From: Escherichia phage LF82-11
Sequence record: PV660454
Direction: 5' to 3' (one strand)
Length of the DNA stretch: 52,979 nucleotides
The number at the start of each line of letters is the position of its first letter. Position 1 is the stretch's first letter. Below, piece after piece: positions 33,289 through 52,217 of this stretch. The notes beneath the pieces are model-generated. The model was not told the DNA's origin and did not search any database. It was given only the letters and a program-made list of their open reading frames with translations. A program made the translations under genes and the position numbers.

Positions 33289-33462
33289 ATGAAAGTTAAA
33301 TGTATTCGCAATGACTCTAAATCGCTCCCGTTCCATGTGAACCAGTTTTACTCTATCGGGTTCGATCACGGCGGCGGGAACTTCGAAATTTATGACGGTT
33401 GCGGCTCCTGTATTATTGCCCCGCTAAATGGGCATTATCTGGAATTCGTTATCGTCAAATAA
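33289..33462 (+). CDS. small protein of the MKxKC paralogue family
   Basis: 57 aa starting MKVKCI; not in ORF track. Confidence 0.35.
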   Translation: MKVKCIRNDSKSLPFHVNQFYSIGFDHGGGNFEIYDGCGSCIIAPLNGHYLEFVIVK

Positions 33463-33488
33463 AGCAACACATTCATCACCTTACCTAT

Positions 33489-33516
33489 CGGGAGCCTTTT
33501 ACGGCTCCCTTTTTTG
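33489..33516 (+). terminator. rho-independent terminator
   Basis: GGGAGCC-ttttac-GGCTCCC then T6. Confidence 0.5.
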
Positions 33517-33594
33517 CTTCTTTTTTATTCCGAGCCGGGTTACAATCCTTTTACTAACTAAATATTGACATTCAAAGAGTTTAAGGATCTGATC

Positions 33595-33813
33595 ATGAGG
33601 GAAGTAATCAATGCAGTAACCAGCGCCACAGGCGGCGCGTCACTAACCGGAGCGGCTACAGGTCAGTTAGTTATTGCTGGCGCAACGTTCGTGCTATTCG
33701 TTGGCTTCGGTGTTTGGGGTGCTTACTGGAAATACCAGGACAGCAAAGCAATTCGTGAAGCCCTCAAATCCGGCAATCTGGAAGAGGCGATCAAACTAAA
33801 CGGGAAAAAGTAA
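33595..33813 (+). CDS. holin (single-TM, pinholin-like)
   Basis: 72 aa, one TM helix, immediately upstream of SAR endolysin; ATG 33595 with AAGGA RBS (track start is TTG). Confidence 0.5.
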
Positions 33814-33814
33814 C

Positions 33815-34300
33815 ATGAAGAGATTAGTAGCCGGGGCTGCATTCGGTGCAGCTCTCGCCTTAACGCCTCCCCTGGTGGAGCAGGTTGAAGGCATTCATTA
33901 CGATCCATACAAAGACATTGCCGGGATCTGGACGGTGTGCGCTGGCATTACCGGGAGCGATGTAGTGCTAGGGAAGCGATATACTCAGCGCGAGTGCGAT
34001 GCGTTGCTTTTCAAGCATATCGAGATCGCAAGGAAGGAAGTTGACAAGCGCGTAAACTATCCGATCCCGGACACGATGCGCGCAGCAATGTACAGCTTCA
34101 CGTTTAACGCTGGCACTGGCGCTTTTCGTGGCTCTACAATGCTGAAGCTTATCAATCAGGGCAAGTTGCCTGAGGCATGTAATCAGCTTTGGAGCTGGAC
34201 TTACTACACCAACCCGAAGACCGGGAAAAAAGAGAAGTCGAAGGGGTTGAAGAACCGCCGCGCCTTTGAATACAACTACTGCATGAAGGAATTAAAATGA
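33815..34300 (+). CDS. SAR endolysin (lysozyme, T4/P1 Lyz-like)
   Basis: N-terminal Gly/Ala-rich weakly hydrophobic SAR-like segment followed by E...D...T catalytic-triad spacing. Confidence 0.65.
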
Positions 34301-34728
34301 AACGCGTAAGCAACTCAATGCTGATCTTCGTAACCATCCTCGTGTTCGTTGCAGTGACTTCGCTATCTGGTTGCTCAACGGCTGGCGCTCTGACTGGTTT
34401 GATCGGCAGCAAGCCGGAAATCTCAGCACAGGCCGGAGCGGAAAACACGAAACAGACGGTTGGCCTAAACAACAAAGTGGATCAGTCAAGCGAGGTGGAA
34501 ACCACGATTCGTGATTCAAAGGTTGGAAAGGTTGACAGCTCTAACGGAAAGAAGACCAGCGCATCAAGCATCACGGCTGAAACCATCAAGGCCGACAAGA
34601 TCGAGATTCGCAATAGTGATGGAGAGGCGTTTGGTATTGCGGCTGGTTTCTTCGTCGCTGGTCTGATTGCAGGTTCAAGCGCCGTTGCATACTTAGCAAC
34701 GAGACGCAGAAACAACAAAGGAGCCTAA
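34297..34728 (+). CDS. unimolecular spanin (T1 gp11-like)
   Basis: N-terminal lipoprotein signal with lipobox LSGC plus C-terminal TM helix. Confidence 0.6.
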
Positions 34729-34743
34729 CGGCTCCTTTTTTAT
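34718..34743 (+). terminator. rho-independent terminator after lysis cassette
   Basis: AAGGAGCC-taac-GGCTCCTT then T6. Confidence 0.5.
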
Positions 34744-34934
34744 TTGTAACGCTTTGCCAGTATCAGAAGTTCACCAGCATCATTGCACAACGTGTGCTCA
34801 TCCTTCTTCCCGGCTCGCATCGAACTATTCAGCAGTGACAGCAGGGCGTAATTTAACTCGTCCTCCGTCACCCCTTGAGAGGCGCAAGCCTCAATAATCG
34901 CGTTGATTAGGTTTTGAGCAACCAAAAAGTTCAT
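34740..34934 (-). CDS. hypothetical protein (overlaps upstream gene)
   Basis: track ORF starts at TTG 34952; first ATG at 34934; may instead be part of a shifted gene. Confidence 0.2.
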   Translation of the reverse strand: MNFLVAQNLINAIIEACASQGVTEDELNYALLSLLNSSMRAGKKDEHTLCNDAGELLILAKRYK

Positions 34935-35253
34935 CGTCGCTGAGCTTGTCAATATTCATCATCTCCCATGTGTAACGATCCTCTTCACCGCCGTAACAGT
35001 TGAAATCAAATTCAAAGGGGCGCTTCTGCGCCCCCTTGCTCCAGTACCAGAGGTTTACGCCGTCAAGGTAGCCCAACCCCATCATCCTTGCAACAAACTC
35101 CTTAGAAGCGCTTGAGGCGAAGTAACGAGGGGTTACGTTAGCGGCCTTTGCAAGCCGCTCGCACTCGTGATGCTTGAAAATGAATTGCGCCAAGTGTTGG
35201 CGGTTGAATTTCGTGTAACTCTCACAGAACTTATACAGATCCAGAAGGAACAT
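34891..35253 (-). CDS. hypothetical protein
   Basis: 120 aa, starts 3 nt after upstream gene stop. Confidence 0.3.
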   Translation of the reverse strand: MFLLDLYKFCESYTKFNRQHLAQFIFKHHECERLAKAANVTPRYFASSASKEFVARMMGLGYLDGVNLWYWSKGAQKRPFEFDFNCYGGEEDRYTWEMMNIDKLSDDELFGCSKPNQRDY

Positions 35254-35255
35254 GA

Positions 35256-36842
35256 TTACCCCAGCAAGCGTGGATTAACGTAAATCTTATCACCGATCAG
35301 GCAAGTGTAATTCTTCTCGTCAAGCATCGGCAGCAAGTGATCTTTGATTCGTGTCATTGTTCCGGCCTGGCCTTCGAATGGTCGAACCTTGCGCGCGGCC
35401 TCGTAAAGCGCCCGAAGACCAACAACGCCCTTCCCCTGCTTTCCGCTCTTGATCAGCAAGTCAATAAGCTTGTTCATTTCTGCTGAATCGCCAGCGTGCC
35501 CGGCAGACGACGCGGAAGAAAGATAGGTCTTGCTCAGCTCGTTAAACATGATCACGGCCTCCTGCATTGTGTCAAGCTCAATCTCTCGACTCTTCGGCGC
35601 ATTGCTTCCGTTTGGTGAGAACCAGTTACGGATCACATGCAGAACCGACGCGATACGAATCGCCTGTTTATCGAACTTGCCCAGCGCACCGCGTAACATG
35701 GTGTGCGAGTATTTCCCGCCGTCTGCCAAGTGTGGCTCCATCGCCTGGCGTGCGTTGTTAAGGTACTTCATCGCGCTCTTGCTCACCGTGAGCTTAACGT
35801 CAACCTCACTCATGATGGCGTGTATCAGCTTGAAGTAATCAGCTTTCAGGCCGCCGTCAATAGGCTCGTAAGTTGACTCGCCATTGTCATTCACGAAAAC
35901 ACGCTCACCAAGGAATGACTTCTCACGAACCAGCAAGAAACGCTCAGAAACACCGATACCGCGCGCACCTGCATTCATGATCGCGTTGATTGTCTCGTCC
36001 TGCGCGATAACCGAAATACAACCCATAGCCACGAATGACATGTTGTTATCAGCGTTCGCACGAGCGATAGACACGTTCCCTGCATCCCATGCTTTCAGCA
36101 CAAGCTCGCTGTTTGTCTTCTTCGAACCGTCACCATACGTCATGCCCAACAGGCTGTTAACGGATGTCGCTTCGTCCGAGATCACAGCGAAGTTGCCTTG
36201 ACGGTTGTTAATGCGTGCCAAGCCTTCAGGCGTGGTATCTGAAACAGGGAAAACGATATCGCAAAGGCGCTCAAGCTTCTCTTCAAGATCCTCTTTCTCC
36301 TCAAACAGCGAGGCCATTTCAGATGGCGCTTTCTCCTGTTTCATTTCCTTCGCCAGCGCAGACAGTTTGGCGAGAATCTTTTTACGCTCACGCTTACGAG
36401 CCTCGTTGAGTCGCTCAGTCTCCGCGATCATTGGCGCGATGGATAGCGAGTTGATTGCGGATTTCCCCGTTGATGGTGGCTGACTGGTTACAACGTAGAG
36501 CGCAGTTGGTTGTTGCGTTCCGTGATAGTCAACCGTGAACCTACCCAGCATGGCGGCAGACACGCAACCTACAAAGTGCATATAGGCTGAAGACTCAGGG
36601 AATTGAACCGATCTCGCGGCGTTGCGTGAGAGCTTGCCGACCACATCACTATCGTTGCCCAGGGAAATAACAGGATATTTATCATTACCTGAATCAATCT
36701 CTACCGGAGCCTTCCAGAAGGATTGGGATTGACGATATCCATTCGCATTTATGGCAACGCGGAGCGGCGGCAACCCTTCGGCCTTTGCAACCTCGATCAC
36801 TTGTTCCGGCGAAAGTTTATCATCATTGAAAATATCGAACAT
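35256..36842 (-). CDS. P-loop NTPase, putative replication ATPase/helicase
   Basis: Walker A-like PPSTGKS and Walker B-like FAVISDE; RBS AAGGAG. Confidence 0.45.
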   Translation of the reverse strand: MFDIFNDDKLSPEQVIEVAKAEGLPPLRVAINANGYRQSQSFWKAPVEIDSGNDKYPVISLGNDSDVVGKLSRNAARSVQFPESSAYMHFVGCVSAAMLGRFTVDYHGTQQPTALYVVTSQPPSTGKSAINSLSIAPMIAETERLNEARKRERKKILAKLSALAKEMKQEKAPSEMASLFEEKEDLEEKLERLCDIVFPVSDTTPEGLARINNRQGNFAVISDEATSVNSLLGMTYGDGSKKTNSELVLKAWDAGNVSIARANADNNMSFVAMGCISVIAQDETINAIMNAGARGIGVSERFLLVREKSFLGERVFVNDNGESTYEPIDGGLKADYFKLIHAIMSEVDVKLTVSKSAMKYLNNARQAMEPHLADGGKYSHTMLRGALGKFDKQAIRIASVLHVIRNWFSPNGSNAPKSREIELDTMQEAVIMFNELSKTYLSSASSAGHAGDSAEMNKLIDLLIKSGKQGKGVVGLRALYEAARKVRPFEGQAGTMTRIKDHLLPMLDEKNYTCLIGDKIYVNPRLLG

Positions 36843-36870
36843 GTTAAAAACTCCTTGTTTGGTTGCTCAA

Positions 36871-36913
36871 TGATAGAGCAACCAATGATAGTGCGTTTTG
36901 GCAAAAAGTGCTA
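36871..36913 (-). promoter_or_regulatory. box-promoter module (minus)
   Basis: box read on minus strand, hairpin, TATCAT-like -10 at about 23 bp. Confidence 0.4.
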
Positions 36914-36917
36914 TTGG

Positions 36918-37334
36918 TTATAAATATTTTGCTTCAAATGTTGTGCCGTCTGCGATCGAAAATCCAACCTCCTCGCGGTAAAGGTTCCACGGTGAGCCGT
37001 CCTCGTCAAAGATAAGCCCGGCAACCCCACCAAGCGCCCTGCCTGAATCCACCTGGTAGCGCTTGCCAACCTTAAAGGATTTCTTCATTGGGTTCTTGTG
37101 ATCCAGCGTCATGCACTTCAGGGTTTTAGTTTTCATCTCAACGAATGTTGCAGCAACGACGCCATCCGATGAAACGAAAATATCACCGCTTACGCCAACC
37201 GAAAGCACGATCTTAGCCTTGCCCTTGCCGATTGAAATGTTGCCTTCATCGTCAACTTTCGCCTTATACATGTGGTTAGCGTTGAAGGTTTTAGTTAATG
37301 ACATGGTGCATTTGATCTTGATTGACTTTGACAT
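36918..37334 (-). CDS. tandem-duplicated small-domain protein (paralogue family)
   Basis: two internal copies of the K-x-K-C ... F-K-V-G-K-R-Y module; start moved to ATG 37334 with GAGGAA RBS. Confidence 0.35.
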   Translation of the reverse strand: MSKSIKIKCTMSLTKTFNANHMYKAKVDDEGNISIGKGKAKIVLSVGVSGDIFVSSDGVVAATFVEMKTKTLKCMTLDHKNPMKKSFKVGKRYQVDSGRALGGVAGLIFDEDGSPWNLYREEVGFSIADGTTFEAKYL

Positions 37335-37363
37335 TTTTAGTTCCTCGTTGTTGGTGTGAATGA

Positions 37364-37406
37364 ATAATAACAAAACCCGCCGAAGCGGGTTTAACAAAAA
37401 GTGCTA
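37364..37406 (-). promoter_or_regulatory. box-promoter module (minus)
   Basis: TAGCACTTTTTGTTA on minus strand, 22 bp, TATTAT; box starts at stop of upstream gene. Confidence 0.5.
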
Positions 37407-38096
37407 TTTGTAACGGTTGTACTGGAAGACGGCGCGAGCGAATCCGCGCGGAGTTAGGGAGCGGAGTTGCTTAGTCTTCGCAGACTTTCCGCCGAGGAAC
37501 TTCCAGCCCCAAAAGAAATGCAAGCCTTCCTCTTTTGGTAATGGTGCCTTCTCTGGCTCGCGGAAACCGTTGCCATGCCAGATGCAAGTTTTTTTCGTGT
37601 AGCCGTCTCGCAGTGGCATTTTGGGGTGCCAGGAGCCTTCACGCGCATCGACGTATTGCCCGAAGTCACGAGGATGGAAATAGAATTTAGGCTTGCCCAG
37701 GTTTTCCGGCTTTGACATTGCCCCTACCGGGTTTTCAATCATCCACGGGATCTGGTAGCGTTCGCCAATCTCAATGACAACCTTTGCACACTCAAGCGCA
37801 TATTTCATTTCGGCGTCGTCTCTCTCGTGCTGCGCGCCAGATTGGGCAAACAGAGTGCAATCCGGGAAGCCAAAAACGATATCAGGCTTGGGCAACCCCA
37901 GGATCTCAGCCTTTGTGATGAAATCCTTATCAATCCACGTATTCACATATCGGATATTTGGGTGATTCATCTTCACGGCGTACTCGCCATGATTGCCGGA
38001 GTCAGCGTTGAAGCATATCACCTGACAACCAACCTCAGCCCAAGGCAATCCCATAATGCCGGAGCCGTCAAACAGCGACCATACAACACGCTTCAT
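37404..38096 (-). CDS. compact C5-cytosine methyltransferase-fold protein
   Basis: FDGSG (motif I-like), GFPDC (IV-like), ENP (VI-like), RSLTPRGFARA (IX/X-like); only 230 aa so little room for a target-recognition domain. Confidence 0.5.
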   Translation of the reverse strand: MKRVVWSLFDGSGIMGLPWAEVGCQVICFNADSGNHGEYAVKMNHPNIRYVNTWIDKDFITKAEILGLPKPDIVFGFPDCTLFAQSGAQHERDDAEMKYALECAKVVIEIGERYQIPWMIENPVGAMSKPENLGKPKFYFHPRDFGQYVDAREGSWHPKMPLRDGYTKKTCIWHGNGFREPEKAPLPKEEGLHFFWGWKFLGGKSAKTKQLRSLTPRGFARAVFQYNRYK

Positions 38097-38314
38097 TCTG
38101 CCACCTCTTCAAATTTAGCCACGCCCAGGATTACCCATCCTTTATGGTGCATAGTAACCGCTTGCCACTCGAATGAGCCGTTGCGGCGCTTCTCATCGCC
38201 AGTGATCACAGCATCACCGCCAACCTTCACGGCATCGTAGATTTTACCTTTCGTGAAGTGTGGCTTTTGCTTCTTATCGGTTGGCGAAACAGCGCCAGTA
38301 CATTTCAGTTTCAT
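38093..38314 (-). CDS. small protein of the MKxKC paralogue family
   Basis: MKLKCT...FTKGKIYDA; ATGA-coupled to methyltransferase-like gene. Confidence 0.35.
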   Translation of the reverse strand: MKLKCTGAVSPTDKKQKPHFTKGKIYDAVKVGGDAVITGDEKRRNGSFEWQAVTMHHKGWVILGVAKFEEVAE

Positions 38315-38323
38315 TGCAGATCC

Positions 38324-38563
38324 TTAAAATGGAATTTCATCTTTGCAAGCTTGACATACTTTCTCAGGCGTGCATGAGCAGTTATAAGCGCAAACAGAAA
38401 CCGGATTATTGCCGATAACCTTGCTTTCTGATTGGTGATCCATTCCACCAAGAGCATCATCAAGCTCTATGCACCCATAGGCAACCATCATTGCCCACTC
38501 GTCGTTAAGCCCGGCATCCTTAGCCGCGCGGTGGCGGCTCCAGAAGTTATTGACGTTCTTCAT
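38324..38563 (-). CDS. Cys-rich small protein
   Basis: 80 aa, C-terminal C-x-n-C cluster; start moved to internal ATG 38563 (5' part of track ORF looks spurious). Confidence 0.3.
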   Translation of the reverse strand: MKNVNNFWSRHRAAKDAGLNDEWAMMVAYGCIELDDALGGMDHQSESKVIGNNPVSVCAYNCSCTPEKVCQACKDEIPF

Positions 38564-38789
38564 TCTCGCGCTCCCGATCCTGATAGCCGATTTCAACGAG
38601 CGCGGAGCCAGCAGCCTCGACGAATTCCATGTTGCAGCACATAAAGAAAAGTTCCTTGTATTGCTGAGGAACATCAAGCGCATCGATAATCTCTCTTGCG
38701 CGATCTTCATCGATATCGTTGCGATATAGCCCGATCTGGCGCGAATGCATACGGAACGTCGCGCCAGCTTCAATCTTGTTGATAGCCAT
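38547..38789 (-). CDS. hypothetical acidic protein
   Basis: 80 aa, protein-like composition, overlaps downstream start. Confidence 0.3.
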   Translation of the reverse strand: MAINKIEAGATFRMHSRQIGLYRNDIDEDRAREIIDALDVPQQYKELFFMCCNMEFVEAAGSALVEIGYQDRERENEERQ

Positions 38790-38792
38790 TTA

Positions 38793-39017
38793 TTAGCTCC
38801 AGGAGTTGATAAACATTGCGTTACCTTCAAGAACCTGAATAACTTCAAACTCACTGTATTTCGTCAGGCCGGAACCTGGGGTTTTGCCAACCACAAAGGA
38901 GCCATCACGGCGAGCGGTAATGCAAATCTGAGTCAGGCCGGATGCGCGATCCAATTTCACGCGAACGGAGCCAGTTTTATCCAGGTGTGCCATGATATTT
39001 GCGGTTTTAACTTTCAT
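38793..39017 (-). CDS. hypothetical protein (MKVK start)
   Basis: 74 aa from ATG 39017 with AAGGAA RBS. Confidence 0.3.
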   Translation of the reverse strand: MKVKTANIMAHLDKTGSVRVKLDRASGLTQICITARRDGSFVVGKTPGSGLTKYSEFEVIQVLEGNAMFINSWS

Positions 39018-39047
39018 CTTCATTTCCTTGTTTGTTGGTGTAACTGC

Positions 39048-39090
39048 ATTATTGCAGATCACGCCGATTTAGTTTTAACAAAAAGTGCTA
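39048..39090 (-). promoter_or_regulatory. box-promoter module (minus)
   Basis: TAGCACTTTTTGTTA on minus strand starting at stop of 39088..39435, then AATAAT-like -10. Confidence 0.45.
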
Positions 39091-39435
39091 TTTGATGCCG
39101 TCAAAGGTTGTGTATTTCAGGTTCACACTGACCTTGCCATCATCGAAATGGAAAGCGGGAGCCTCAAAGCGGATGATGTTATTCATCGTTCCGGCCTCTA
39201 CGTAGCGTCGTGCGCCATTTCTCATGGGGATAACGCTGACTCTCTTTGCCGCATCGAATGGATTTGAAACGCCAAAGTATCGACATACAGCGCCGCGCAA
39301 CGCCTCATCTTCATGCTTATGCATATCACGGATGAGGCGATTTTTAGCGTCCATCATCACATCATAGCTTGCACAGCTAGAGCCGATGTTGCTATATTCG
39401 CGCATTCCGCCAACCTTGAATTGATTGTTGTTCAT
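39088..39435 (-). CDS. hypothetical protein
   Basis: 115 aa, ATGA-coupled to upstream gene. Confidence 0.3.
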   Translation of the reverse strand: MNNNQFKVGGMREYSNIGSSCASYDVMMDAKNRLIRDMHKHEDEALRGAVCRYFGVSNPFDAAKRVSVIPMRNGARRYVEAGTMNNIIRFEAPAFHFDDGKVSVNLKYTTFDGIK

Positions 39436-39680
39436 GGTAACTTTACCTCGTTGTATTCACAGAATTCGATTACATATTCACAGCTATCGGTTGACTCAGT
39501 GCCGCGCAGAACATCACAGCCGCCATCACTACCCAAGAAGGCCGGGCATGAAGCGCACAGCGCGCCGCCGCAATTCGATTCGACGATTGACATTCCGTTA
39601 CACCTTCCGCCGCCGAATCGGTGCGGAAAGTCATAGGCGCGGCAGTCGCACGTAACCTGGTGTCGCTTACGCTTTTGCAT
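39432..39680 (-). CDS. Cys-rich small protein (putative metal-binding)
   Basis: 82 aa with more than 10 Cys in C-x2-C-like spacing. Confidence 0.3.
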   Translation of the reverse strand: MQKRKRHQVTCDCRAYDFPHRFGGGRCNGMSIVESNCGGALCASCPAFLGSDGGCDVLRGTESTDSCEYVIEFCEYNEVKLP

Positions 39681-39891
39681 CTGCCAGCCACTTAGCGTAT
39701 TTTGCGCGCTGATTCATTGAGCAGGTGATCCCCTCTTCCTTCATGTTGCTCGCGCGGTAGATCTCAACCTGTGATTCCGTGTTTAACTTGCCATCACGAA
39801 CGTAAACGGAGCCACGGAAGGTGTGGAAAACTACATCTTTCATGGTTGCAGCCAGCGCCAGGAATTCAGACTTTTTCATCATATGTGCCAT
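39667..39891 (-). CDS. hypothetical protein
   Basis: 74 aa, first gene after box module. Confidence 0.3.
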   Translation of the reverse strand: MAHMMKKSEFLALAATMKDVVFHTFRGSVYVRDGKLNTESQVEIYRASNMKEEGITCSMNQRAKYAKWLADAKA

Positions 39892-39922
39892 TTGCTTATC
39901 TCCGTTTCGTTTTAGTGGTTAC

Positions 39923-39965
39923 ATTATGCCGGGTTTCCGCCCGGCACGTTTAGCAATTAGTGCTA
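39923..39965 (-). promoter_or_regulatory. box-promoter module (minus)
   Basis: TAGCACTAATTGCTA on minus strand, 22 bp with GCCGGG hairpin, CATAAT. Confidence 0.5.
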
Positions 39966-40172
39966 TCAGATTGATTCGATTACCGCGTGGAAATCTTTGC
40001 GGGTTTTGCAGTCTGCCAGGCGTGCATAACATGCTTTAGCGTAGTCAGTATCGGCCTGAGTTTCGAAGATGCCACACTCTTTGGCGATAGCTTTTAATGT
40101 ACGCTTTCCGCTTTCGATATCAGCCTTGATGCCGTTGATGGTGTTGATGTCGATGATGTTAAGAGTTGTCAT
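39966..40172 (-). CDS. hypothetical protein
   Basis: 68 aa ORF. Confidence 0.3.
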   Translation of the reverse strand: MTTLNIIDINTINGIKADIESGKRTLKAIAKECGIFETQADTDYAKACYARLADCKTRKDFHAVIESI

Positions 40173-40209
40173 TTTGCTATCCTTTTGTGTGCTTCGTTTC
40201 GATGGAGTA

Positions 40210-40252
40210 ATAATAGCAAAAGCCAGATCGGGAGTTTTAGCAAAAAGTGCTA
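40210..40252 (-). promoter_or_regulatory. box-promoter module (minus)
   Basis: TAGCACTTTTTGCTA on minus strand, 22 bp, TATTAT. Confidence 0.5.
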
Positions 40253-40314
40253 TTTTCCCGATCCGGCGCGCGGAACATCTGCCCCATGGTTTGGGGTGTT
40301 AACCAGTCAGAGCG

Positions 40315-40743: not shown

Positions 40744-40955
40744 GCTTTATTCCTCGTTAATTTGAAAGTCAATTCAACCTCGCCCACAACCTCCGCCATC
40801 CCATGATTTACCATGTAACGAAACTCTTCATAGGTAAATGCGGTTTGCGCTGGCAGGCCATCCATGATGCGCATACAAGGCAACTCACTGTAGCGCGTCA
40901 TTGGGATCGCGTACTCGCGCCCGGTTGTCTTAATGCGGATAAGTTTCATTTTCAT
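40740..40955 (-). CDS. hypothetical protein
   Basis: 71 aa, ATGA-coupled. Confidence 0.3.
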   Translation of the reverse strand: MKMKLIRIKTTGREYAIPMTRYSELPCMRIMDGLPAQTAFTYEEFRYMVNHGMAEVVGEVELTFKLTRNKA

Positions 40956-41355: not shown

Positions 41356-41358
41356 AAA

Positions 41359-41629: not shown

Positions 41630-41672
41630 ACTATAGCCGAAACATCCTGAGTGGTTTTAGCAAAAAGTGCTA
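41630..41672 (-). promoter_or_regulatory. box-promoter module (minus), leftward early promoter
   Basis: TAGCACTTTTTGCTA on minus strand, 22 bp, TATAGT. Confidence 0.5.
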
Positions 41673-42307: not shown

Positions 42308-42805
42308 ATGACACTTGCAGAAGTATTGCGCTATATGGCAACCGAAGCCATGAAATCCCCTGAGAAGGAGATCACCGTGCCAGTGTGGCAAATCCTGGTT
42401 CAGGCACACAATCTGGACGCTGACGAGCGCCGCGCATTACAGGCAGACTTTGACAAGCGCGTTGAGCTGGTAGCAAGTGAGAAGCGCCTGACCAACTCGT
42501 ACATCACCAACACCTGCAACCGCATGAAGGAAATGATCGCGGCTGACCTATCCATCACCACAAAGCGTGGCGAGGACGACGGCGGGAATCGGACGCTCAC
42601 CCTGGGCGTTAAGCCCGGCGCAATGAAGCTGGGCAGTCGGAGCAAGTCGGAGAACATCGCGGCGAAGAATGCAGTGCAGGATTTTGCCCGGCGCATCATG
42701 GAGATTGCCCCAGCACTAGATAGCCTGAGCGATGATCGCGTTGCTGGTGCCGTCGATGGCGTGCGCATGATGAAAGAGCTGATTGCCAGGGAGGCCGGAC
42801 TATGA
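42308..42805 (+). CDS. hypothetical protein, first gene of rightward early operon
   Basis: 165 aa, RBS GAGG; flanked upstream and downstream by GGAATA iterons. Confidence 0.35.
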   Translation: MTLAEVLRYMATEAMKSPEKEITVPVWQILVQAHNLDADERRALQADFDKRVELVASEKRLTNSYITNTCNRMKEMIAADLSITTKRGEDDGGNRTLTLGVKPGAMKLGSRSKSENIAAKNAVQDFARRIMEIAPALDSLSDDRVAGAVDGVRMMKELIAREAGL

Positions 42806-43103: not shown

Positions 43104-43319
43104 ATGGAAACTGTAACAATCGGCGCTAAGCCGCCATCATTTGACAACTTCCCGTCGCAATTCGTTGAGGATGAATACGGTGACGAAACAGAGGTGTCTT
43201 TAATTCACTCGTCAGGCAACAAGTCTGTACTCATGGAAAGCGGCAACATGATTTTCACGCCAGATCAGGCGCGCGAACTGGCTGCGGCTCTCATCAAGGC
43301 GGCTGAGGTGTGCGAATGA
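43104..43319 (+). CDS. hypothetical acidic protein
   Basis: 71 aa from ATG 43104, RBS GAGG. Confidence 0.3.
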   Translation: METVTIGAKPPSFDNFPSQFVEDEYGDETEVSLIHSSGNKSVLMESGNMIFTPDQARELAAALIKAAEVCE

Positions 43320-43525
43320 AGTTCAAAACTACATACGTATCACCGCGCGCTCGCGTTGCATTCAACCTGCGCAAGGGTATGACATACGACGCTGAGAAGA
43401 TTGGCAATCAGATTTCGGTGCGCGTGCCTATCGGTAGGCTCATCATCAAGCTCCAGGGAGAGAGGTTCATGAGTCGCTCAATGACGGGCGAATTACTCGC
43501 GGCATGGGAGGAAGTGAAAAAATGA
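43316..43525 (+). CDS. hypothetical protein (weak paralogue-family member)
   Basis: MKFKTT...KGMTYDA; ATGA-coupled. Confidence 0.3.
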   Translation: MKFKTTYVSPRARVAFNLRKGMTYDAEKIGNQISVRVPIGRLIIKLQGERFMSRSMTGELLAAWEEVKK

Positions 43526-45183: not shown

Positions 45184-45311
45184 ACCTAACAACTCTTGAG
45201 GCGATCATTGTCGCTACCGCTGGCTTACTCGTTGCTGGCATCATCATTGAGCAAATTGCCTATACCTGGTTGCAGATTGTTAAGCGCCGGAAGGAGAAAG
45301 GTGATGATTAA
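45180..45311 (+). CDS. small single-TM membrane peptide
   Basis: 43 aa, hydrophobic core then basic tail KRRKEK; not in ORF track. Confidence 0.3.
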   Translation: MNLTTLEAIIVATAGLLVAGIIIEQIAYTWLQIVKRRKEKGDD

Positions 45312-45408
45312 TGCAATCGGCGCGGCATGTCTTCTTGCTTCCGTCACTGTGGTTGCGGTTGGCGCTGTTTGGCTAATGGCAAAAATATTGCGTGAGATTG
45401 ACGAATAG
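45304..45408 (+). CDS. small single-TM membrane peptide
   Basis: 34 aa from ATG 45304 within track ORF 45196..45408. Confidence 0.3.
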   Translation: MINAIGAACLLASVTVVAVGAVWLMAKILREIDE

Positions 45409-45448
45409 CACGAATTGCTAAAACGGCATGGCTCCTGAGTGGTATCAT
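45406..45448 (+). promoter_or_regulatory. box-promoter module
   Basis: TAGCACGAATTGCTA, 22 bp with CGGCATG/CATGCCG hairpin, TGgTATCAT. Confidence 0.5.
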
Positions 45449-45480
45449 GCCGTTACACCAAACAAACAGGAGTCACCCAA

Positions 45481-45846
45481 ATGAAAGTTAAATGCATTAG
45501 TTCAGACGTTTTGCTTGATGGTTACTACACCCCAGGTAGAGTCTACCGATTAAGGCGAGAAAGGGGCAAAAGCTATAGAACCGTTAAATCAAACAGAGGC
45601 GTTGATCTTGGTGTTATCCACGACCCATTAAAAAGAGGTCGGTTTTTCGTTGCTGGATTTGAACGTTGTGTGTTTGATTCGGCTCCGCACCGATTCGTGA
45701 AGCGCAACCAAAGCGCCGCGCTGGGGCAGATTGAGATCGACTATACGCGATGCAAGCGCAGCATTCGCAATCAGGCTCGCAACATCGCAAAAGAGCACTT
45801 CTCGTGCGGCAAGCTTGAGAAGATTGCGCGAGGCTATAAGCGATAG
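45481..45846 (+). CDS. paralogue-family protein (MKVKC)
   Basis: start moved to ATG 45481 with GGAG RBS; MKVKCISS...YTPGRVYRL. Confidence 0.4.
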   Translation: MKVKCISSDVLLDGYYTPGRVYRLRRERGKSYRTVKSNRGVDLGVIHDPLKRGRFFVAGFERCVFDSAPHRFVKRNQSAALGQIEIDYTRCKRSIRNQARNIAKEHFSCGKLEKIARGYKR

Positions 45847-45886
45847 CACTTTTTGCTAAAACTTCCGCAAGGGCATTTGATATAGT
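45844..45886 (+). promoter_or_regulatory. box-promoter module
   Basis: TAGCACTTTTTGCTA, 22 bp, TGaTATAGT in loop of AAGGGCA/TGCCCTT hairpin. Confidence 0.5.
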
Positions 45887-45926
45887 GCCCTTATTGAAGC
45901 AGAGCAAACCAATCAGAGGATTCAAC

Positions 45927-46136
45927 ATGGCAATACCAACATTTACCCGTAAGCAGTTTACCGAGTTCTTCCGCCTGGTTAACATGAGCGGCAGCCCGCA
46001 CCAGATGGATCGCATCACTAGCCGCCTTGAAATGCCCAAGTTCGTTGAGGCAGTCGGGCGCAAGAATTGCAATAGCATGTGGGCGCTGATTAATGGCGGC
46101 GTTACACCATCAACCTTAGACCCGGAGATCAAATAA
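45927..46136 (+). CDS. hypothetical protein
   Basis: 69 aa from ATG 45927, RBS GAGGA. Confidence 0.3.
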   Translation: MAIPTFTRKQFTEFFRLVNMSGSPHQMDRITSRLEMPKFVEAVGRKNCNSMWALINGGVTPSTLDPEIK

Positions 46137-46501
46137 TGCGCATTCGTTTATTAAACCCGTCAATCTATACCGGAATGGAGCTGAGCAAATACAACTCAGA
46201 TCCTATGCACGACGAAAGCAACTACCCGGTTATTGTTGAAGCGTCAGAGAAGGATCACAACGGCTTTGAATTCACAGGCCGGGCGCATGTAAGCTACAAG
46301 GAGCTTGATCGCGTATTCCCATACGGATTCGAGCGCGACAAGTGCGAACCTGGGAAGGGCATTGGCTGGTGGAATAACCCGGTAAAACGAGACGCTAAAA
46401 CGCCTCAAATCTCATGGGAGCCAGTATCACCGTTTGACTACTGGAACAAGCTGAAATCATCCCGCCCGGTTGGTGACGTGGTTCCGGCGGGGTACTTATG
46501 A
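46136..46501 (+). CDS. hypothetical protein
   Basis: 121 aa, overlapping start. Confidence 0.3.
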   Translation: MRIRLLNPSIYTGMELSKYNSDPMHDESNYPVIVEASEKDHNGFEFTGRAHVSYKELDRVFPYGFERDKCEPGKGIGWWNNPVKRDAKTPQISWEPVSPFDYWNKLKSSRPVGDVVPAGYL

Positions 46502-46749
46502 GAAAATTAACCCGCGATGAGGAGCGTTTTAAATCGTGCCTCAAGAAGTCAAAGCAGAAGGCTATCATCATGGATCGCAACTCATCCGGTCAAGCCTTCT
46601 GGCATTTCCCGGACGTTGAGCAAACGGGATGGCACCCGGACACTATACGAGATCTCATGCGTGATGATCTTGTTGAGTTCGGGTTAATGGATAGTGGGCA
46701 CCCTAACGGACAGCCGCGATACAGTAACGCAAAGTGGATAGGGGGTTGA
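46498..46749 (+). CDS. hypothetical protein
   Basis: 83 aa, ATGA-coupled. Confidence 0.3.
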   Translation: MRKLTRDEERFKSCLKKSKQKAIIMDRNSSGQAFWHFPDVEQTGWHPDTIRDLMRDDLVEFGLMDSGHPNGQPRYSNAKWIGG

Positions 46750-46750
46750 T

Positions 46751-46939
46751 ATGCAGATCTACAAATCGCCAGGCGGAGCAAGATATGTCGTTGTTGATGG
46801 CGTTGTTTACTGCAAGCCAGCAGATGGAAGCATGGTTTACAGGCCGCGCATGACGGTTGAGCGATATCTTGAGCTTATCGCTGGCGGTCTTCTGACATTC
46901 CATTGCGTTATTCGCCCGGTAATGTTCAAAAAGCACTAA
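46751..46939 (+). CDS. hypothetical protein
   Basis: 62 aa, RBS GGGGG. Confidence 0.3.
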   Translation: MQIYKSPGGARYVVVDGVVYCKPADGSMVYRPRMTVERYLELIAGGLLTFHCVIRPVMFKKH

Positions 46940-46973
46940 TTGCTAAAACTTGCTAAGAGGCATTTGTTATAGT
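46931..46973 (+). promoter_or_regulatory. box-promoter module
   Basis: aAGCACTAATTGCTA, 22 bp, TGtTATAGT in loop of AGAGGCA/TGCCTCT hairpin. Confidence 0.5.
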
Positions 46974-47011
46974 GCCTCTTGTCGAGTTAACACAAATACA
47001 GAGGATTTGAA

Positions 47012-47716
47012 ATGAGCATTCAACGCTACTACCCTGAAGTGAAGTACACAGTGCGGGAAACTCGCGTTAATATGGCTCCACACGAGCGCGGAAGCTATGT
47101 GACCTATGAATCACACATCGAAGAATTGCGCCGCGTACAGGCCGAATTAGACGCCTTAAAAGCGATGCAAAAAAGCGATTTTTTCTATCACCTAAAGCCA
47201 GTCTTCGAAAAGGCGCTTGAAGAGGCGATTGCTATCGTCGTGAAGCAAGCCAGCCAATCAGTTTTCAAGGTTGACGCTGAGGCGCTAATTGCTGCTGACG
47301 TTGGCCGTTGGATGGAGAAGCACATGAACGAGCGCGCCGGATTTGCAACTGGCAGCCTGTTTGTGGGTGATGTAGAGGTTGATTTCGACAACAACAAAGT
47401 CAAGATCACCGATGCGCTAATCAAGAGCGGCGTTGTGACTGAAAGCGAATTATTCTCTTTCCCTAAGGCACGAAAGAACATTGTCGTTTGCACAAGCGCC
47501 GATGAAGGTAGCGGTTTCACTATTGGAAAGAAATACGCATTCGATCGCAATGAAGGGAACATTATCCGAATCTGCCAGGATGATTTTGTTTCAGATCTCG
47601 CAGAGGATGATTGCTGGATTGCAAGCCGCCGCCGAAACCTGGTAAGCGGTGAATTCAGATACTTCTTACAGGGGCATACAGAAGGCAAGCGCGCATCTTT
47701 CGAGATCGTTGAATAG
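47012..47716 (+). CDS. hypothetical protein with C-terminal paralogue-family domain
   Basis: 234 aa; C-terminal NIVVCTSADEGSGFTIGKKYAFD matches family motif. Confidence 0.35.
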   Translation: MSIQRYYPEVKYTVRETRVNMAPHERGSYVTYESHIEELRRVQAELDALKAMQKSDFFYHLKPVFEKALEEAIAIVVKQASQSVFKVDAEALIAADVGRWMEKHMNERAGFATGSLFVGDVEVDFDNNKVKITDALIKSGVVTESELFSFPKARKNIVVCTSADEGSGFTIGKKYAFDRNEGNIIRICQDDFVSDLAEDDCWIASRRRNLVSGEFRYFLQGHTEGKRASFEIVE

Positions 47717-47756
47717 CACGAATTGTTAAACGGGCATGTGTTCCGACTGGTATCAT
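47714..47756 (+). promoter_or_regulatory. box-promoter module
   Basis: TAGCACGAATTGTTA, 22 bp, TGgTATCAT. Confidence 0.5.
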
Positions 47757-47786
47757 GTGCCAACACAAACAAGCAAGGGGCTTTAA

Positions 47787-47954
47787 ATGTTCGAAGAAAA
47801 GAAACACAGGCCGGAACAAGCTTACTCAAGGGTATCACGCACCGTTAAAGAGCGTAGGCGCTGGGTTAAGTATTTCATGAATCAAGGCCACACCAGATCG
47901 GTTGCGATTGGCCTGGCTAAGTGGGCAACAAACAACTACAACGGGAAAAACTGA
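47787..47954 (+). CDS. small basic protein
   Basis: 55 aa, RBS AAGGGG; not in ORF track. Confidence 0.25.
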   Translation: MFEEKKHRPEQAYSRVSRTVKERRRWVKYFMNQGHTRSVAIGLAKWATNNYNGKN

Positions 47955-48586
47955 TGAACTTTCAAATGTACACTATGATCAAGCATCACTTACTTACTCA
48001 TCCAGATCAGCCAGTCTACATCTTCGACTATGACGGCACGCTTTCGGATGGCTCTCACCGACTGGACAAGTTGCCAACAAAAGATTTGCACCTCACCGAA
48101 AGCTGGGAAGAGTTCAATCGCCTTGCTTCATTCGATGAGCCGATCGAAACAACCATTCAGGTGATGAATTCACTTTATAAGGCTGGCGCTTTCGTTATCG
48201 TGTTAACCGGGCGCGCCGATAGCGTTGTTGAAGAGTCAACACAATGGCTGCATGATGCTGGGGCGAAATATACAGTGATGGTGATGCGTGGGCGTGACGA
48301 CAATCGCAAGGACACGATCATCAAGGAGGAATTCTTGCGCTACATCGGACTTGAGCGAATTACAGCGGCGTGGGATGATAGCCCAAAAGTGATCGAGCAT
48401 TTCCGATCGCTGGGCATCACAACCTACCAGGTTTGTGATTATGGCGATAAGACTCACGCGCATCTACAGTCACACGGCGTGAAAGATGCTGGCGGAGAGT
48501 GTGAGCATATTTGGGAGCGTCACAGTATTGGTGACGATTATTATGAATGCTGTGTTTCATGCGGCAGATCAAGAGGCATTAAGTAA
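47954..48586 (+). CDS. HAD-superfamily phosphatase with C-terminal Cys cluster
   Basis: IFDYDGTL (DxDGT) HAD motif I; ATGA-coupled; C-terminal C-x-n-C cluster. Confidence 0.5.
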   Translation: MNFQMYTMIKHHLLTHPDQPVYIFDYDGTLSDGSHRLDKLPTKDLHLTESWEEFNRLASFDEPIETTIQVMNSLYKAGAFVIVLTGRADSVVEESTQWLHDAGAKYTVMVMRGRDDNRKDTIIKEEFLRYIGLERITAAWDDSPKVIEHFRSLGITTYQVCDYGDKTHAHLQSHGVKDAGGECEHIWERHSIGDDYYECCVSCGRSRGIK

Positions 48587-49194
48587 TGGCAACTATCATC
48601 ATTCTGAATGCGCCGCCGCGCGCCGGGAAAGACACGATCGCGAAAATCATCGACGAGCAATACGGCTTGCCAGTTGTGAGCTTCAAAACTCCGATGTTCA
48701 ACATTGCTCGCGGCATCTTGGGCGAAGCGGATTTTAAAGAGTTCATGGCGGTTTACGAAACAGACCGCAAGGACACACAGCCGTTAAGTATTCTGCATGG
48801 CAGCACTTGCCGCGAGTTTATGATCTGGATTAGCGAATCCGTGATTAAGCCTCATTTCGGCAAGAAGCATTTCGGCTGGCTTATGGCTGATTTGCTCAGC
48901 GAAATGGAGGATGATGTTGATCTCACAATTTGCAGCGATGGCGGGTTCCCGGATGAGGTAGAGGCGTTGATTGACTTCGGGCACCGTGTCAAGCTGGTTC
49001 GTATGCACCGTGAAGGCTTCGACTTCTCGAAAGATAGCCGTGACTACATCTACCTTTCCGAAGAGTACAAGAGCAAGCCTGGTGTTGTTGAGTTCGATCT
49101 GACATTGCAGGACGGTTGCCCTAATCTGGCTGCTGAGACTATCGCGTCATTGTTCATTGCCCATCATAAACCAGATAACGAGATCCCTTGGTAA
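48586..49194 (+). CDS. P-loop (deoxy)nucleotide kinase-like protein
   Basis: N-terminal LNAPPRAGKDT Walker A resembling phage dNMP kinase P-loops. Confidence 0.45.
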   Translation: MATIIILNAPPRAGKDTIAKIIDEQYGLPVVSFKTPMFNIARGILGEADFKEFMAVYETDRKDTQPLSILHGSTCREFMIWISESVIKPHFGKKHFGWLMADLLSEMEDDVDLTICSDGGFPDEVEALIDFGHRVKLVRMHREGFDFSKDSRDYIYLSEEYKSKPGVVEFDLTLQDGCPNLAAETIASLFIAHHKPDNEIPW

Positions 49195-49195
49195 A

Positions 49196-49238
49196 TAGCA
49201 CTTTTTGTTAAACCCGCTTCGGCGGGTTTTGTTATTCT
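49196..49238 (+). promoter_or_regulatory. box-promoter module with terminator-like hairpin
   Basis: TAGCACTTTTTGTTA, CCCGC-ttcg-GCGGG plus TTTTG, TATTCT. Confidence 0.45.
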
Positions 49239-49267
49239 TGCTTTAACGAAACGAAATGGAGTGAAGA

Positions 49268-49498
49268 ATGAAAACTTTATCAGAGCTGAAGTCGATCGCG
49301 GCTGACTTGCAGGAGCGAATGAAGCCACTAAACCACAAGCTGGAAAACTCGCGCATTACTATAGCCTCAAGAATGTCTATCGAGTGCTCACTGCGCGAAC
49401 TTAAAATCATGTGGCATGATGCCATGTGCGACGTTCACGCTCACCCTGAGTACGAAGGTGAGTTTAAATTCCAGAAAGAAAACAACCCATACCGATAA
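49268..49498 (+). CDS. hypothetical protein
   Basis: 76 aa, RBS GGAG. Confidence 0.3.
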   Translation: MKTLSELKSIAADLQERMKPLNHKLENSRITIASRMSIECSLRELKIMWHDAMCDVHAHPEYEGEFKFQKENNPYR

Positions 49499-49508
49499 GG
49501 ATTCAATA

Positions 49509-49805
49509 ATGAACACTATCAAAAAGTTGACTCCAAACATGGCAACCAAAATCAAGTACGAGATCCCGGAGGATGGCACATTCTTAGCCGTCTGGACTTA
49601 TCGCGAGATCCCGTACTCCGGTACTTATCAATGGCGAAACGGCGAGCTTGCCGTGTGGGTTGATGGCGTTGGCTGGGAAATTGCCGGGCATGGAGCGGCG
49701 GAGGACTATTACGATTTCAACTGCCTCGTGTCTATGGCTAGTGGTGAGAATTACGGCGGTGCTTGTCACTTTGTTGCGGTTGTAGTGGTTGAGGAAACAG
49801 CGTGA
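49509..49805 (+). CDS. hypothetical protein
   Basis: 98 aa from ATG 49509, RBS AAGGA. Confidence 0.3.
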   Translation: MNTIKKLTPNMATKIKYEIPEDGTFLAVWTYREIPYSGTYQWRNGELAVWVDGVGWEIAGHGAAEDYYDFNCLVSMASGENYGGACHFVAVVVVEETA

Positions 49806-49975
49806 AGACTTTTATTATTTTCCTAGTTGGCGCTTGCATGGTTAGCGTTTCTGATAACTTCACAGTTTTCGTTGGCGCTGCGATGGTGTCGTGGGCTTAC
49901 TACCGATGCGGAAAGGCTGACGGAATAGCGGAAGGTAAACGCCAGGCGCTGGCATCCGGCACTAAGTTAAAGTAG
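49802..49975 (+). CDS. possible small membrane protein (GTG start)
   Basis: 57 aa with two hydrophobic segments; ends in TAG that begins next box; not in ORF track. Confidence 0.2.
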   Translation: MKTFIIFLVGACMVSVSDNFTVFVGAAMVSWAYYRCGKADGIAEGKRQALASGTKLK

Positions 49976-50015
49976 CACGATTTGTTAAAAGGGGATTCGT
50001 CCTGACTGGTATAAT
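49973..50015 (+). promoter_or_regulatory. box-promoter module
   Basis: TAGCACGATTTGTTA, 22 bp, TGgTATAAT inside GGGGATT/AATCCCC hairpin. Confidence 0.55.
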
Positions 50016-50045
50016 CCCCACATCAACCAAGCAGAGGAAACGATC

Positions 50046-50498
50046 ATGAAATTAGTTTGCACATCATCACGCGTCAAAAGCTTCACCGTTGGAAAGAAAT
50101 ATGAAAGCCGCACAGTCGAGCATTACGGAATTGTTACGCACGAGGTGGACGGAGACACCGCTTGCGGCTGGGTGATTAACGATGGCCTGAGCATTTGCGG
50201 AGCTGATCACTCAAACCCAATGGCAACTTTCCGCAAGGATAAGAGCATGATGAAGATGCTTGTTCGCGCATTCGTATTGGTTGCAAAGGCTCGCGGTTGG
50301 GGTGATAGCAAGAGCGGGGCTTACAAATCCTGGAGCGGCACACCTTACAAAAACTCCAGAGATTGGGCGCGAGCTATTGCCTTCAGCTACGATGTTGGGA
50401 GTGTTGCGCGCGAGATAATTGATGAAGATCCTAACGTGAAACTCATCGACCAGGAAGCGGTAAACCTGTTTGCCGAAAACGAGATCGACAACTGGTAA
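50046..50498 (+). CDS. paralogue-family protein (MKLVC)
   Basis: MKLVCTSSRVKSFTVGKKYESRT. Confidence 0.4.
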   Translation: MKLVCTSSRVKSFTVGKKYESRTVEHYGIVTHEVDGDTACGWVINDGLSICGADHSNPMATFRKDKSMMKMLVRAFVLVAKARGWGDSKSGAYKSWSGTPYKNSRDWARAIAFSYDVGSVAREIIDEDPNVKLIDQEAVNLFAENEIDNW

Positions 50499-50560
50499 TT
50501 TGCGCAAGGCCGTTTATAATAGCGGCCTTACTCAGACAAACCAATCAGAAGGAAATCACC

Positions 50561-50989
50561 ATGAAATTACGTTGCACATTCCTTGAGCCAGCTTTCGCAA
50601 AAGCTCTGGCTGAGTTCTACACCATCGGCAAAACTTACGCCGCATCCATCAAGCCGGGATCAAAGGTTGGCGCTGTGCTGGTGGAGTCAAACGAAGGCAA
50701 TGAAGGCGATCAGCTTGCAGCAGTTCCGAGCCGCTCAGGGTTCGAGGTTCAAATTAAGAACCAAATTCCGATCGCAAAGTTCGAGGTTGTTGGCAAGCGT
50801 GCGGTGAAGCTTGTTAAGACTGAGAAGCGCGTAACGCTGAAACTTGATGGCGTGGGGAAATCAGATAAGCGCCGATTCCGCCGTGTTTGCCGCCAGTATC
50901 GAAAGTTGAAATTCATCAACCCTGGATTCTATTATGATCTGGAATCCGATCGCCACATGGCTAAACTTGCGCGACATCACCGCCGATAG
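50561..50989 (+). CDS. paralogue-family protein (MKLRC), basic C-terminus
   Basis: MKLRCTF...FYTIGKTYAAS; Arg/Lys-rich C-terminal tail. Confidence 0.4.
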   Translation: MKLRCTFLEPAFAKALAEFYTIGKTYAASIKPGSKVGAVLVESNEGNEGDQLAAVPSRSGFEVQIKNQIPIAKFEVVGKRAVKLVKTEKRVTLKLDGVGKSDKRRFRRVCRQYRKLKFINPGFYYDLESDRHMAKLARHHRR

Positions 50990-51029
50990 CACTTTTTGCT
51001 AAAACTCGAAATCGGGGTTGCGATATAGT
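50987..51029 (+). promoter_or_regulatory. box-promoter module
   Basis: TAGCACTTTTTGCTA, 22 bp, TATAGT in loop of GGGGTT/AACCCC hairpin. Confidence 0.5.
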
Positions 51030-51062
51030 AACCCCATCGAAACGCAACGGAGCAAACGAAAA

Positions 51063-51293
51063 ATGAAAAAGTACCCAACTGCGATGATTATCCGCACCAC
51101 TAACCGCGTAGAAGCCGATGCACTCACCCTGGCCGAATGTGGTTTCAAGGTTGGTGATATCATCGAGCTTGACGGATGCTACTGCGACGGCACAGCAAGT
51201 GCAAAAGCGATTCGCGAAGGGCTTGGGATTCGCGTAGGCGATAACGTCAGCCTTGAGGCTTGCGAATATGTTGTTGTGGAGGGTTCTATATGA
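51063..51293 (+). CDS. hypothetical protein (weak paralogue-family member)
   Basis: 76 aa from ATG 51063; CGFKVGDIIE. Confidence 0.3.
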   Translation: MKKYPTAMIIRTTNRVEADALTLAECGFKVGDIIELDGCYCDGTASAKAIREGLGIRVGDNVSLEACEYVVVEGSI

Positions 51294-51595
51294 TTTGGGT
51301 TCACACTTACGGCGTGGGCAAGTTCGGCAAGCGCATTATAAAAACCATCCACGAGAGCGCCGAAAGCGCTGAGGACTCACAAAAAGTCCTTGGTGGAACG
51401 GTTGAGCAGTTCATGAGCACAGAAGAGGTTGCGATCGAGAAATACCATATCGCCAACGCTGCGCGCCAGGAAGTTAGCGATATCATTGACGACTTCAGCA
51501 AGCACGATCCGGCATCCTACGGTTCGCCGGGATGGGATGCGAAAAAGCTGAAGGCGTGCAACATGATCAACCAGATTATCGAAGGGGATTTTTGA
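51290..51595 (+). CDS. hypothetical protein
   Basis: 101 aa, ATGA-coupled. Confidence 0.3.
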   Translation: MIWVHTYGVGKFGKRIIKTIHESAESAEDSQKVLGGTVEQFMSTEEVAIEKYHIANAARQEVSDIIDDFSKHDPASYGSPGWDAKKLKACNMINQIIEGDF

Positions 51596-51829
51596 ATGTT
51601 CGGACTGAGTGAGCCGCACTGGAACATAGTTAAGAGCCAGGCGCGAAAGCTGAATGAAGCGGTTAAAGCAATGCCGGAGAAAGATCGCAAAAATGACCGC
51701 CTGATGATTCAGGTTATCGACAAGCATCACCAGCCGATCGCCACCATCATTGAGCGCTTGAAATTCACTTGGACGGCTGGATATTTAGCCGGGCGCGTGG
51801 GAAATAAAACTAACGGAGATTATGAGTAA
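51596..51829 (+). CDS. hypothetical protein
   Basis: 77 aa, overlapping start. Confidence 0.3.
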   Translation: MFGLSEPHWNIVKSQARKLNEAVKAMPEKDRKNDRLMIQVIDKHHQPIATIIERLKFTWTAGYLAGRVGNKTNGDYE

Positions 51830-52011
51830 TGGCAGGATTTGACAGCACGAAAAAAGACGCTACGCAAGAAGAGTGGAAGGAACAGCTTGATTGCATCGTC
51901 GAACTAAACGGCTACAACCCTGATTTCATCCCTGATTCATGGCTTGATGCATATGATGGCGGCGCTGAAGTGGCTGATTTCTTTTACGATAACTATGACT
52001 CGGAGGAATAA
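51829..52011 (+). CDS. strongly acidic small protein
   Basis: 60 aa, about one third Asp/Glu with aromatic residues. Confidence 0.3.
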   Translation: MAGFDSTKKDATQEEWKEQLDCIVELNGYNPDFIPDSWLDAYDGGAEVADFFYDNYDSEE

Positions 52012-52217
52012 TGTTTAAGCATCTGCCAAAGAAAGGCGAAATCATTCGCTGTGATTCAGTAGTTGGAGCCGCGCCGTTTATGGTTGGCGTTGAGTACACC
52101 GTTGAACATGTTGATCGCAAAGTTGGTCACATCTACGTTTACGGTGACGAAGGCAACCTCGAGGCGATCGACTACCCGCAAGACGCTGTACACGGAAAGT
52201 TTTCAAAAGTTGATTGA
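52011..52217 (+). CDS. hypothetical protein (weak paralogue-family member)
   Basis: 68 aa; IIRCDS...FMVGVEYTV. Confidence 0.3.
   Translation: MFKHLPKKGEIIRCDSVVGAAPFMVGVEYTVEHVDRKVGHIYVYGDEGNLEAIDYPQDAVHGKFSKVD

Follow-up and report, generated by a model that had tools for sequence, protein, structure and literature searches.

A shared domain in small genes of phage LF82-11

The DNA analysed here, hereafter the window, is the 52,979-nucleotide sequence of Escherichia phage LF82-11 (PV660454). Phages LF82-12 and LF82-40 have an identical complete genome sequence. This T1-like coliphage was isolated on the Crohn's-associated E. coli strain LF82 and is a virulent member of the Drexlerviridae (PMC12509680). 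Between positions 33,289 and 52,217 lie small genes that a first-pass annotation had read as a dispersed family of paralogs, whose products start with K-x-K-C and carry an F-x-V-G-K-x-Y motif further on. All of these genes correspond to annotated coding sequences of PV660455.1 (LF82-12), each labelled "hypothetical protein," and they sit amid small uncharacterised genes and DNA-metabolism genes. Judged by sequence statistics, the paralogous family is real, with seven genes and eight domains confirmed by shuffling controls, leave-one-out profiles and profile–profile alignment. Structure prediction indicated, with confidence, that one small six-stranded SH3-like beta-barrel of about 55–80 amino acids (aa) underlies the family.

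The arrangement of the domain varies: some members consist of it alone, one has two tandem copies, and others carry it at the N or C terminus. It stands alone in the 57-aa product of 33289..33462 (+ strand; Pfam DUF7244, phrog_4788), known as the "standalone SH3" gene and located upstream of the holin gene, and in the 73-aa product of 38093..38314 (− strand; phrog_4448), which lies directly downstream of a Dcm-like methyltransferase gene and has a 16-residue loop between strands beta1 and beta2. Located between a helicase gene and the Dcm-like methyltransferase gene, 36918..37334 (− strand; phrog_2684) encodes a 138-aa protein in which the motif had been reported twice in tandem; profile tests and a structural model both supported two domains, at residues 5–68 and 70–137. 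An N-terminal domain is followed by a basic C-terminal extension (isoelectric point [pI] 10.2) in the 121-aa product of 45481..45846 (+ strand), by an 84-aa extension in the 150-aa product of 50046..50498 (+ strand; phrog_8758) and by a very basic 64-aa tail (pI 11.2) in the 142-aa product of 50561..50989 (+ strand; phrog_34194). The 234-aa protein of 47012..47716 (+ strand) carries the domain at its C terminus (residues 156–234), as had been proposed, behind a 155-aa N-terminal region of no recognised kind. These extensions (two basic tails, the 84-aa extension and the 155-aa region) are mutually unrelated. In Pfam, PHROGs and NCBIfam, each member falls into a separate family without an assigned function.

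As a control for motif occurrence, we used 2000 composition-preserving shuffles of the 91-protein proteome. The first motif, K[VLI][KRV]C[TIM], was present in 6 of the 91 proteins, whereas the shuffles averaged 0.09 and never exceeded 2. Requiring a relaxed second motif, [FY]-x-x-[GN]-x-x-Y, 4–18 residues further on left six proteins and no occurrence in 2000 shuffles. The strict second motif of the first-pass annotation, [FY]-x-[VIL]-G-[KR]-x-Y, held for 50046..50498, 50561..50989, 47012..47716 and the second repeat of 36918..37334; the other members had variants of it (FHVNQFY, FTKGKIY, YTPGRVY and FNANHMY). Alignment of the eight domains revealed a third common motif that had been missed, [AT]-x-F-E-x-V at the domain end.

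All-vs-all comparison gave a divided answer: pairwise phmmer searches were not significant (best E value 0.018 in the 91-protein database), whereas profile tests were positive. Hidden Markov models (HMMs) built without each gene in turn were searched against the 91 real and 2730 shuffled proteins. In 6 out of 7 cases, including 33289..33462, 45481..45846 and 47012..47716, the top hit was the gene left out of the model, and in the remaining case that gene came second; 50046..50498 scored 28.3 bits (E = 2.5e-7) in this test. For profile–profile comparison by hhalign, we prepared subfamily alignments from orthologs in 53 related viral contigs and a large protein collection. Among the seven core genes and 43316..43525, 10 out of 28 pairs had P < 1e-3, compared with 0 out of 27 pairs involving 51063..51293, 52011..52217 or 38793..39017, which served as an internal control. 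The best pairs were 38093..38314 with 50561..50989 (94.5% over 71 columns) and 33289..33462 with 36918..37334 (81%), and 50046..50498 aligned with the 36918..37334 family at 64%. On convergence, an iterated HMM comprised about 100 proteins from 12 subfamilies, with the three motifs in all of them; it had recruited 45481..45846 (E = 4.8e-9), 47012..47716 (E = 1.4e-6) and also 52011..52217 (4.5e-8). We counted as members those proteins that showed the three motifs in colinear order and also significantly matched a profile from which they had been omitted, which yielded 33289..33462, 36918..37334 (twice), 38093..38314, 45481..45846, 47012..47716, 50046..50498 and 50561..50989.

Shared motifs might also arise in genes that are not homologous, by chance or by convergence if small beta-rich proteins or translation starts are under similar constraints. 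The lack of any significant pairwise comparison fits such an origin, as do 19 of 20 nucleotides common to two members at the start codon, which could point to a DNA-level signal. However, the motifs are also internal, at residue 70 of the 36918..37334 protein, at residue 158 of the 47012..47716 protein and in all repeats of multi-repeat relatives. The combined motif never appeared in the shuffles, the leave-one-out and profile–profile tests were positive with negative internal controls, and two members have the same predicted fold. The motif and profile statistics and the internal motif copies thus exclude chance, and the explanation by chance or convergence is already largely refuted; we give it very little credence. 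The common nucleotides at 33287-33306 and 45479-45498 (AAATGAAAGTTAAATG[T/C]ATT) cover codons 1–6 of 33289..33462 and 45481..45846; in their remainder, these genes show no relationship at the DNA level. A second pair of stretches, 50035-50064 and 50550-50579, is 83% alike over the ribosome-binding site and gene start.

The four weaker matches listed by the first-pass annotation fared differently. On sequence grounds, 52011..52217 (+ strand; 68 aa; phrog_4927) is a probable member, in which the domain lies away from the N terminus (I-R-C at residues 12–14). An HMM built without it gave it 16.8 bits (E = 0.0011), and distant repeat-containing members of the superfamily match phrog_4927 at 1e-6 to 1e-10. 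A possible member is 43316..43525 (+ strand; 69 aa), with threonine in place of the conserved cysteine (KFKTT ... RKGMTY ... WEEV); it aligned with the 38093..38314 family at 71% (P = 3.7e-5) and with the family profile at 19%, and was not recruited by the iterated HMM. Neither hhalign nor the family profile supported membership of 38793..39017 or 51063..51293, and both were set aside. The 76-aa product of 51063..51293 (phrog_5684) contains an internal duplication (GFKVGDIIELDGC / GIRVGDNVSLEAC, a G-[FI]-[KR]-V-G-D repeat) and gave weak AbrB, MazE and CDC48_N matches; the repeat and these matches suggest a different barrel type, probably an AbrB/MazE-like protein of another small-barrel family.

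Predicted fold and relatives

AlphaFold2, run without templates on an alignment of 68 sequences, modelled the 36918..37334 protein as a pair of all-beta domains, each with about six strands (predicted local distance difference test [pLDDT] 91.7, predicted template modelling score 0.83). The model of the 38093..38314 protein (pLDDT 83.4) likewise had six strands, with its 16-residue loop between strands 1 and 2. In both models, strand 1 corresponds to K-x-K-C, strand 2 begins with G-K-x-Y and the closing strand 6 is F-E-x-V. The resemblance to a small beta-barrel noted at first was thus borne out by two confident structure predictions and the profile statistics. The nearly invariant residues, namely cysteine, phenylalanine, glycine, tyrosine and phenylalanine, are placed within strands in a pattern suggestive of the core, and thus apparently serve to keep the barrel folded. 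The beta1-beta2 loop comprises 8–16 residues and differs in length and sequence between subfamilies, although in the 38093..38314 subfamily, the sole one examined, it is more conserved than strands 2–5. A lipoprotein or metal site was rejected for the conserved cysteine, a single residue at position 5 without a hydrophobic leader or conserved partner ligands. The only PDB matches of the sequence profiles, to designed "Cake" propeller repeats, were judged to be spurious sums of weak repeat matches. A Foldseek search of viral predicted structures (BFVD) returned uncharacterised proteins only, the best-scoring of which belong to Enterobacter phage Ec_L1 and to coliphages, for example, vB_EcoS_NBD2.

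The closest match by predicted fold is Gp54 of phage Bas11 (PDB 9AXB; PF25180, "Phage antiviral trigger protein Gp54"): the models show a six-stranded beta-barrel with a prominent beta1-beta2 loop that can be superimposed on 9AXB. Gp54 is a non-essential protein of 66 aa whose native function has not been established (Zhang et al., Nature 2024, PMC11578894). Its six-stranded barrel has a rare topology and a prominent beta1-beta2 loop, and it directly binds the pseudo-zinc-finger antitoxin domain of CapRelSJ46, whereupon the barrel partly unfolds and the loop and strands 2–5 form the interface (PMC11578894). Activation of CapRelSJ46 hinges on a few Gp54 residues and is already lost in close homologues (PMC11578894), and therefore cannot be transferred to the window family. 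Canonical SH3 domains have five strands and a 3-10 helix, whereas the window fold has a sixth strand in the position of the helix, as described for Gp54 (PMC11578894). Compared with canonical SH3 and SH3b domains, the window domain also lacks proline-peptide or peptidoglycan-binding signatures and catalytic fusions.

Bas11 is itself a member of the Drexlerviridae, with gp54 in a leftward small-gene cluster equivalent to 38.3–41.6 kb of the window. We found no Gp54 ortholog in the window. None of 30 small window proteins scanned gave a PF25180 score (threshold 27 bits), compared with 116 bits for Gp54 of Bas11 itself. By contrast with Gp54, in which it is absent, the strand-1 cysteine is conserved in the window family. 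Going by the models, the family folds like Gp54; by profile score, it lies outside PF25180. In one related phage (IMG/VR contig 2974746064; L027 6064-6569), a Gp54 homolog adjoins a K-x-K-C member (MKLRCIKAENDN...) with abutting coordinates; therefore, both barrel families can share a small-gene cluster. Ksap1 of SECphi18, a 74-aa trigger of KpAvs2 encoded beside a methyltransferase gene, was considered as a relative and proved unrelated; SECphi18 has no family member.

A HMMER search with the family profile against 1.84 billion representative proteins yielded only 54 matches at E values up to 0.001. These included orthologs and proteins with 2–6 tandem K-x-K-C units, one of them in a Herelleviridae metagenomic genome. 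The tandem-repeat relatives score against DUF7244 (P0138, 36.9 bits), DUF6501 and PHROGs 3523, 16833, 4927 and 9122, and thus the domain belongs to a wider uncharacterised phage superfamily. DUF6501 (PF20111) and PHROGs 3523, 16833, 4927, 9122 and 10580 have the unit K-x-K-C ... F-T-x-G-K-x-Y ... F-E-x-V in common with the window family, often in 2–6 tandem copies, but are separate subfamilies of other phage groups, connected to most window members only weakly and through intermediates; window members gave weak cross-matches to phrog_9122, 3523 and 10580. A word-indexed homolog search with 38093..38314 returned six already known proteins only. Small SH3-like barrels are a known class of phage proteins; what is new is the recognition of a group among them that links DUF7244 and several PHROGs and takes in Gp54 by predicted structure only. 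Two further fragments, with about 80–90% identity to domain 2 of the T1-like protein, were deposited as Staphylococcus epidermidis and Acinetobacter towneri (P0061 and P0085). Both lie on contigs of <600 bases, which makes contamination of the two assemblies by a T1-like phage likely.

Candidate roles of the family

Pfam DUF7244 (PF23896, SH3 clan; threshold 27 bits) was matched by 33289..33462 only, over its full length and at 94.2 bits; nine other listed proteins gave no match at E values up to 1, and 38793..39017 gave none at E values up to 0.01. The DUF7244 "standalone SH3" of the lysis module occurs in 188 out of 522 Drexlerviridae genomes (Eremina et al. 2026, PMC13164509). The same study treats it as a single lysis-associated protein, proposes that the gene assists the endolysin and makes no mention of "paralog" or "Gp54" (PMC13164509). 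Extended to the whole family, this proposal would turn its members into auxiliary lysis factors, that is, SH3b-like cell-wall-binding modules aiding the endolysin, which we regard as distinctly improbable. The position fits 33289..33462 alone, and no member has an export signal or signal peptide. The enzyme fusion or co-transcription and the wall access that characterise SH3b endolysin modules were not found, no member being fused to an enzyme. Furthermore, in the interval 33463-33594 between the DUF7244 and holin genes there is a hairpin that strongly resembles a terminator (33490-33509; GGGAGCC-loop-GGCTCCC, then TTTTTT), and no promoter box lies ahead of the holin gene, indicating that the DUF7244 gene may belong to the upstream transcription unit. 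These results argue against inferring a lysis role of the DUF7244 gene from position alone.

Nucleic-acid binding had been suggested as well. A small barrel of the Sm, KOW, Tudor or cold-shock-like type might act on phage DNA or RNA in replication or expression, and such binding is possible for the two members with basic tails. As a common function it found no support, given domain pI values anywhere between 4.9 and 10.5. The members have no basic or aromatic surface motif in common. Their conserved residues look core-like, and no nucleic-acid-binding Pfam family was matched at E values up to 1. We consider this role unlikely for the family.

Copy number varies among related phages, with 8 gene copies here, 6 in HazelMika (including an ortholog of 47012..47716), 4 in T1 and 4 in Bas11. 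The K-x-K-C domain family is the only multi-copy family of the genome and accounts for 8 out of 91 genes (about 9%). Across the Drexlerviridae, domain 2 of the 36918..37334 protein is nearly invariant and domain 1 is variable. In part of the Drexlerviridae, domain 1 is exchanged for an unrelated MKVIRNSDNQL... domain while domain 2 stays (P0058, P0063 and P0088; Bas11 locus L056 37578-37943), a case of domain swapping within a single gene slot.

The explanation that we favour, with some reservation, is a paralogous family of SH3-like barrels of the Gp54 kind acting as protein-binding accessory scaffolds. Each paralog would be a binding scaffold whose own loop and extension recognise a different host or phage protein, with the conserved barrel core presenting subfamily-specific binding surfaces. 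A scaffold appears most likely because loops and extensions differ between subfamilies and the loop is conserved within the one examined; the conserved core, variable extensions, domain replacement and varying copy number together favour protein-binding accessory factors. As small cytoplasmic proteins, they may be dispensable helpers in cell takeover that, for example, counter host defence or are sensed by it. Protein binding, dispensability and the link to host defence are only what we infer, and the first-pass reading as host-interaction or anti-defence effectors is plausible only by analogy with Gp54 of Bas11, a defence trigger.

Several observations weigh against this explanation. Every database relative is "hypothetical," with no functional annotation for any member, and the nearly invariant domain 2 of 36918..37334 fits a conserved core role better than an arms race. 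The models cover two of the nine putative members (36918..37334 and 38093..38314) and are not fully independent, because the 38093..38314 alignment contained 36918..37334-family domains. By hhalign, the match of the family profile to the Gp54 profile was not significant (2–5% probability, P of about 0.01–0.025); F-x-x-G and the terminal E-V were in register in these weak alignments, and a deeper Gp54 alignment still gave no sequence homology to the family. Because the sequence profiles fail to match, the case for common descent with Gp54 is one of predicted structure only.

A further, more doubtful possibility is that the family is a repertoire of plastic Gp54-type barrels, each neutralising or decoying a different immune sensor or takeover target, and that hosts have evolved CapRel-like sensors of the fold. 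If true, a small virulent phage would possess a multigene family for immune evasion, and the family would be a general source of defence triggers across the Drexlerviridae and other phages. Direct sensing by a bacterial immune protein has been shown for few phage proteins, of which Gp54 is one. Gp54 may represent an outlier in a broader and diversified family of this fold, to which DUF7244 and several PHROGs also belong. The window family is a concrete set of candidate triggers or inhibitors of defence systems.

Promoter boxes and neighbouring features

The box AGCAC-N4-TGYTAAA occurs in 24 copies genome-wide, compared with 0.6 expected, always in intergenic positions and co-oriented with the downstream genes (for example, 33113-33128, 45845-45860 and 49197-49212 on the + strand, and 37390-37405 and 41656-41671 on the − strand). 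In the boxes read, a GC-rich inverted repeat of differing sequence follows the box and a TATAnT-like hexamer lies about 22 nucleotides after TTGYTA, which exceeds the spacing expected if TTGYTA were a normal -35 element. Several box-associated hairpins score as terminators as well. It had been claimed that several family genes sit directly behind a box of their own, which is true for four of them (45481..45846, 47012..47716, 50046..50498 and 36918..37334). However, about 17 transcription units of the region are headed by a box, and thus this position is not special to the family; a preference of members for the first place behind a box was rejected, at 4 of about 17 units compared with about 2.6 expected.

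The rightward small-gene cluster starts with a DUF7174 protein (42308-42805, 103 bits), the only Pfam match among the 20 neighbouring small proteins scanned. Further along, 52382-52469 is a tRNA-Ser gene (anticodon GCT), confirmed by ARAGORN as the sole tRNA in the scanned interval 52000-52979.

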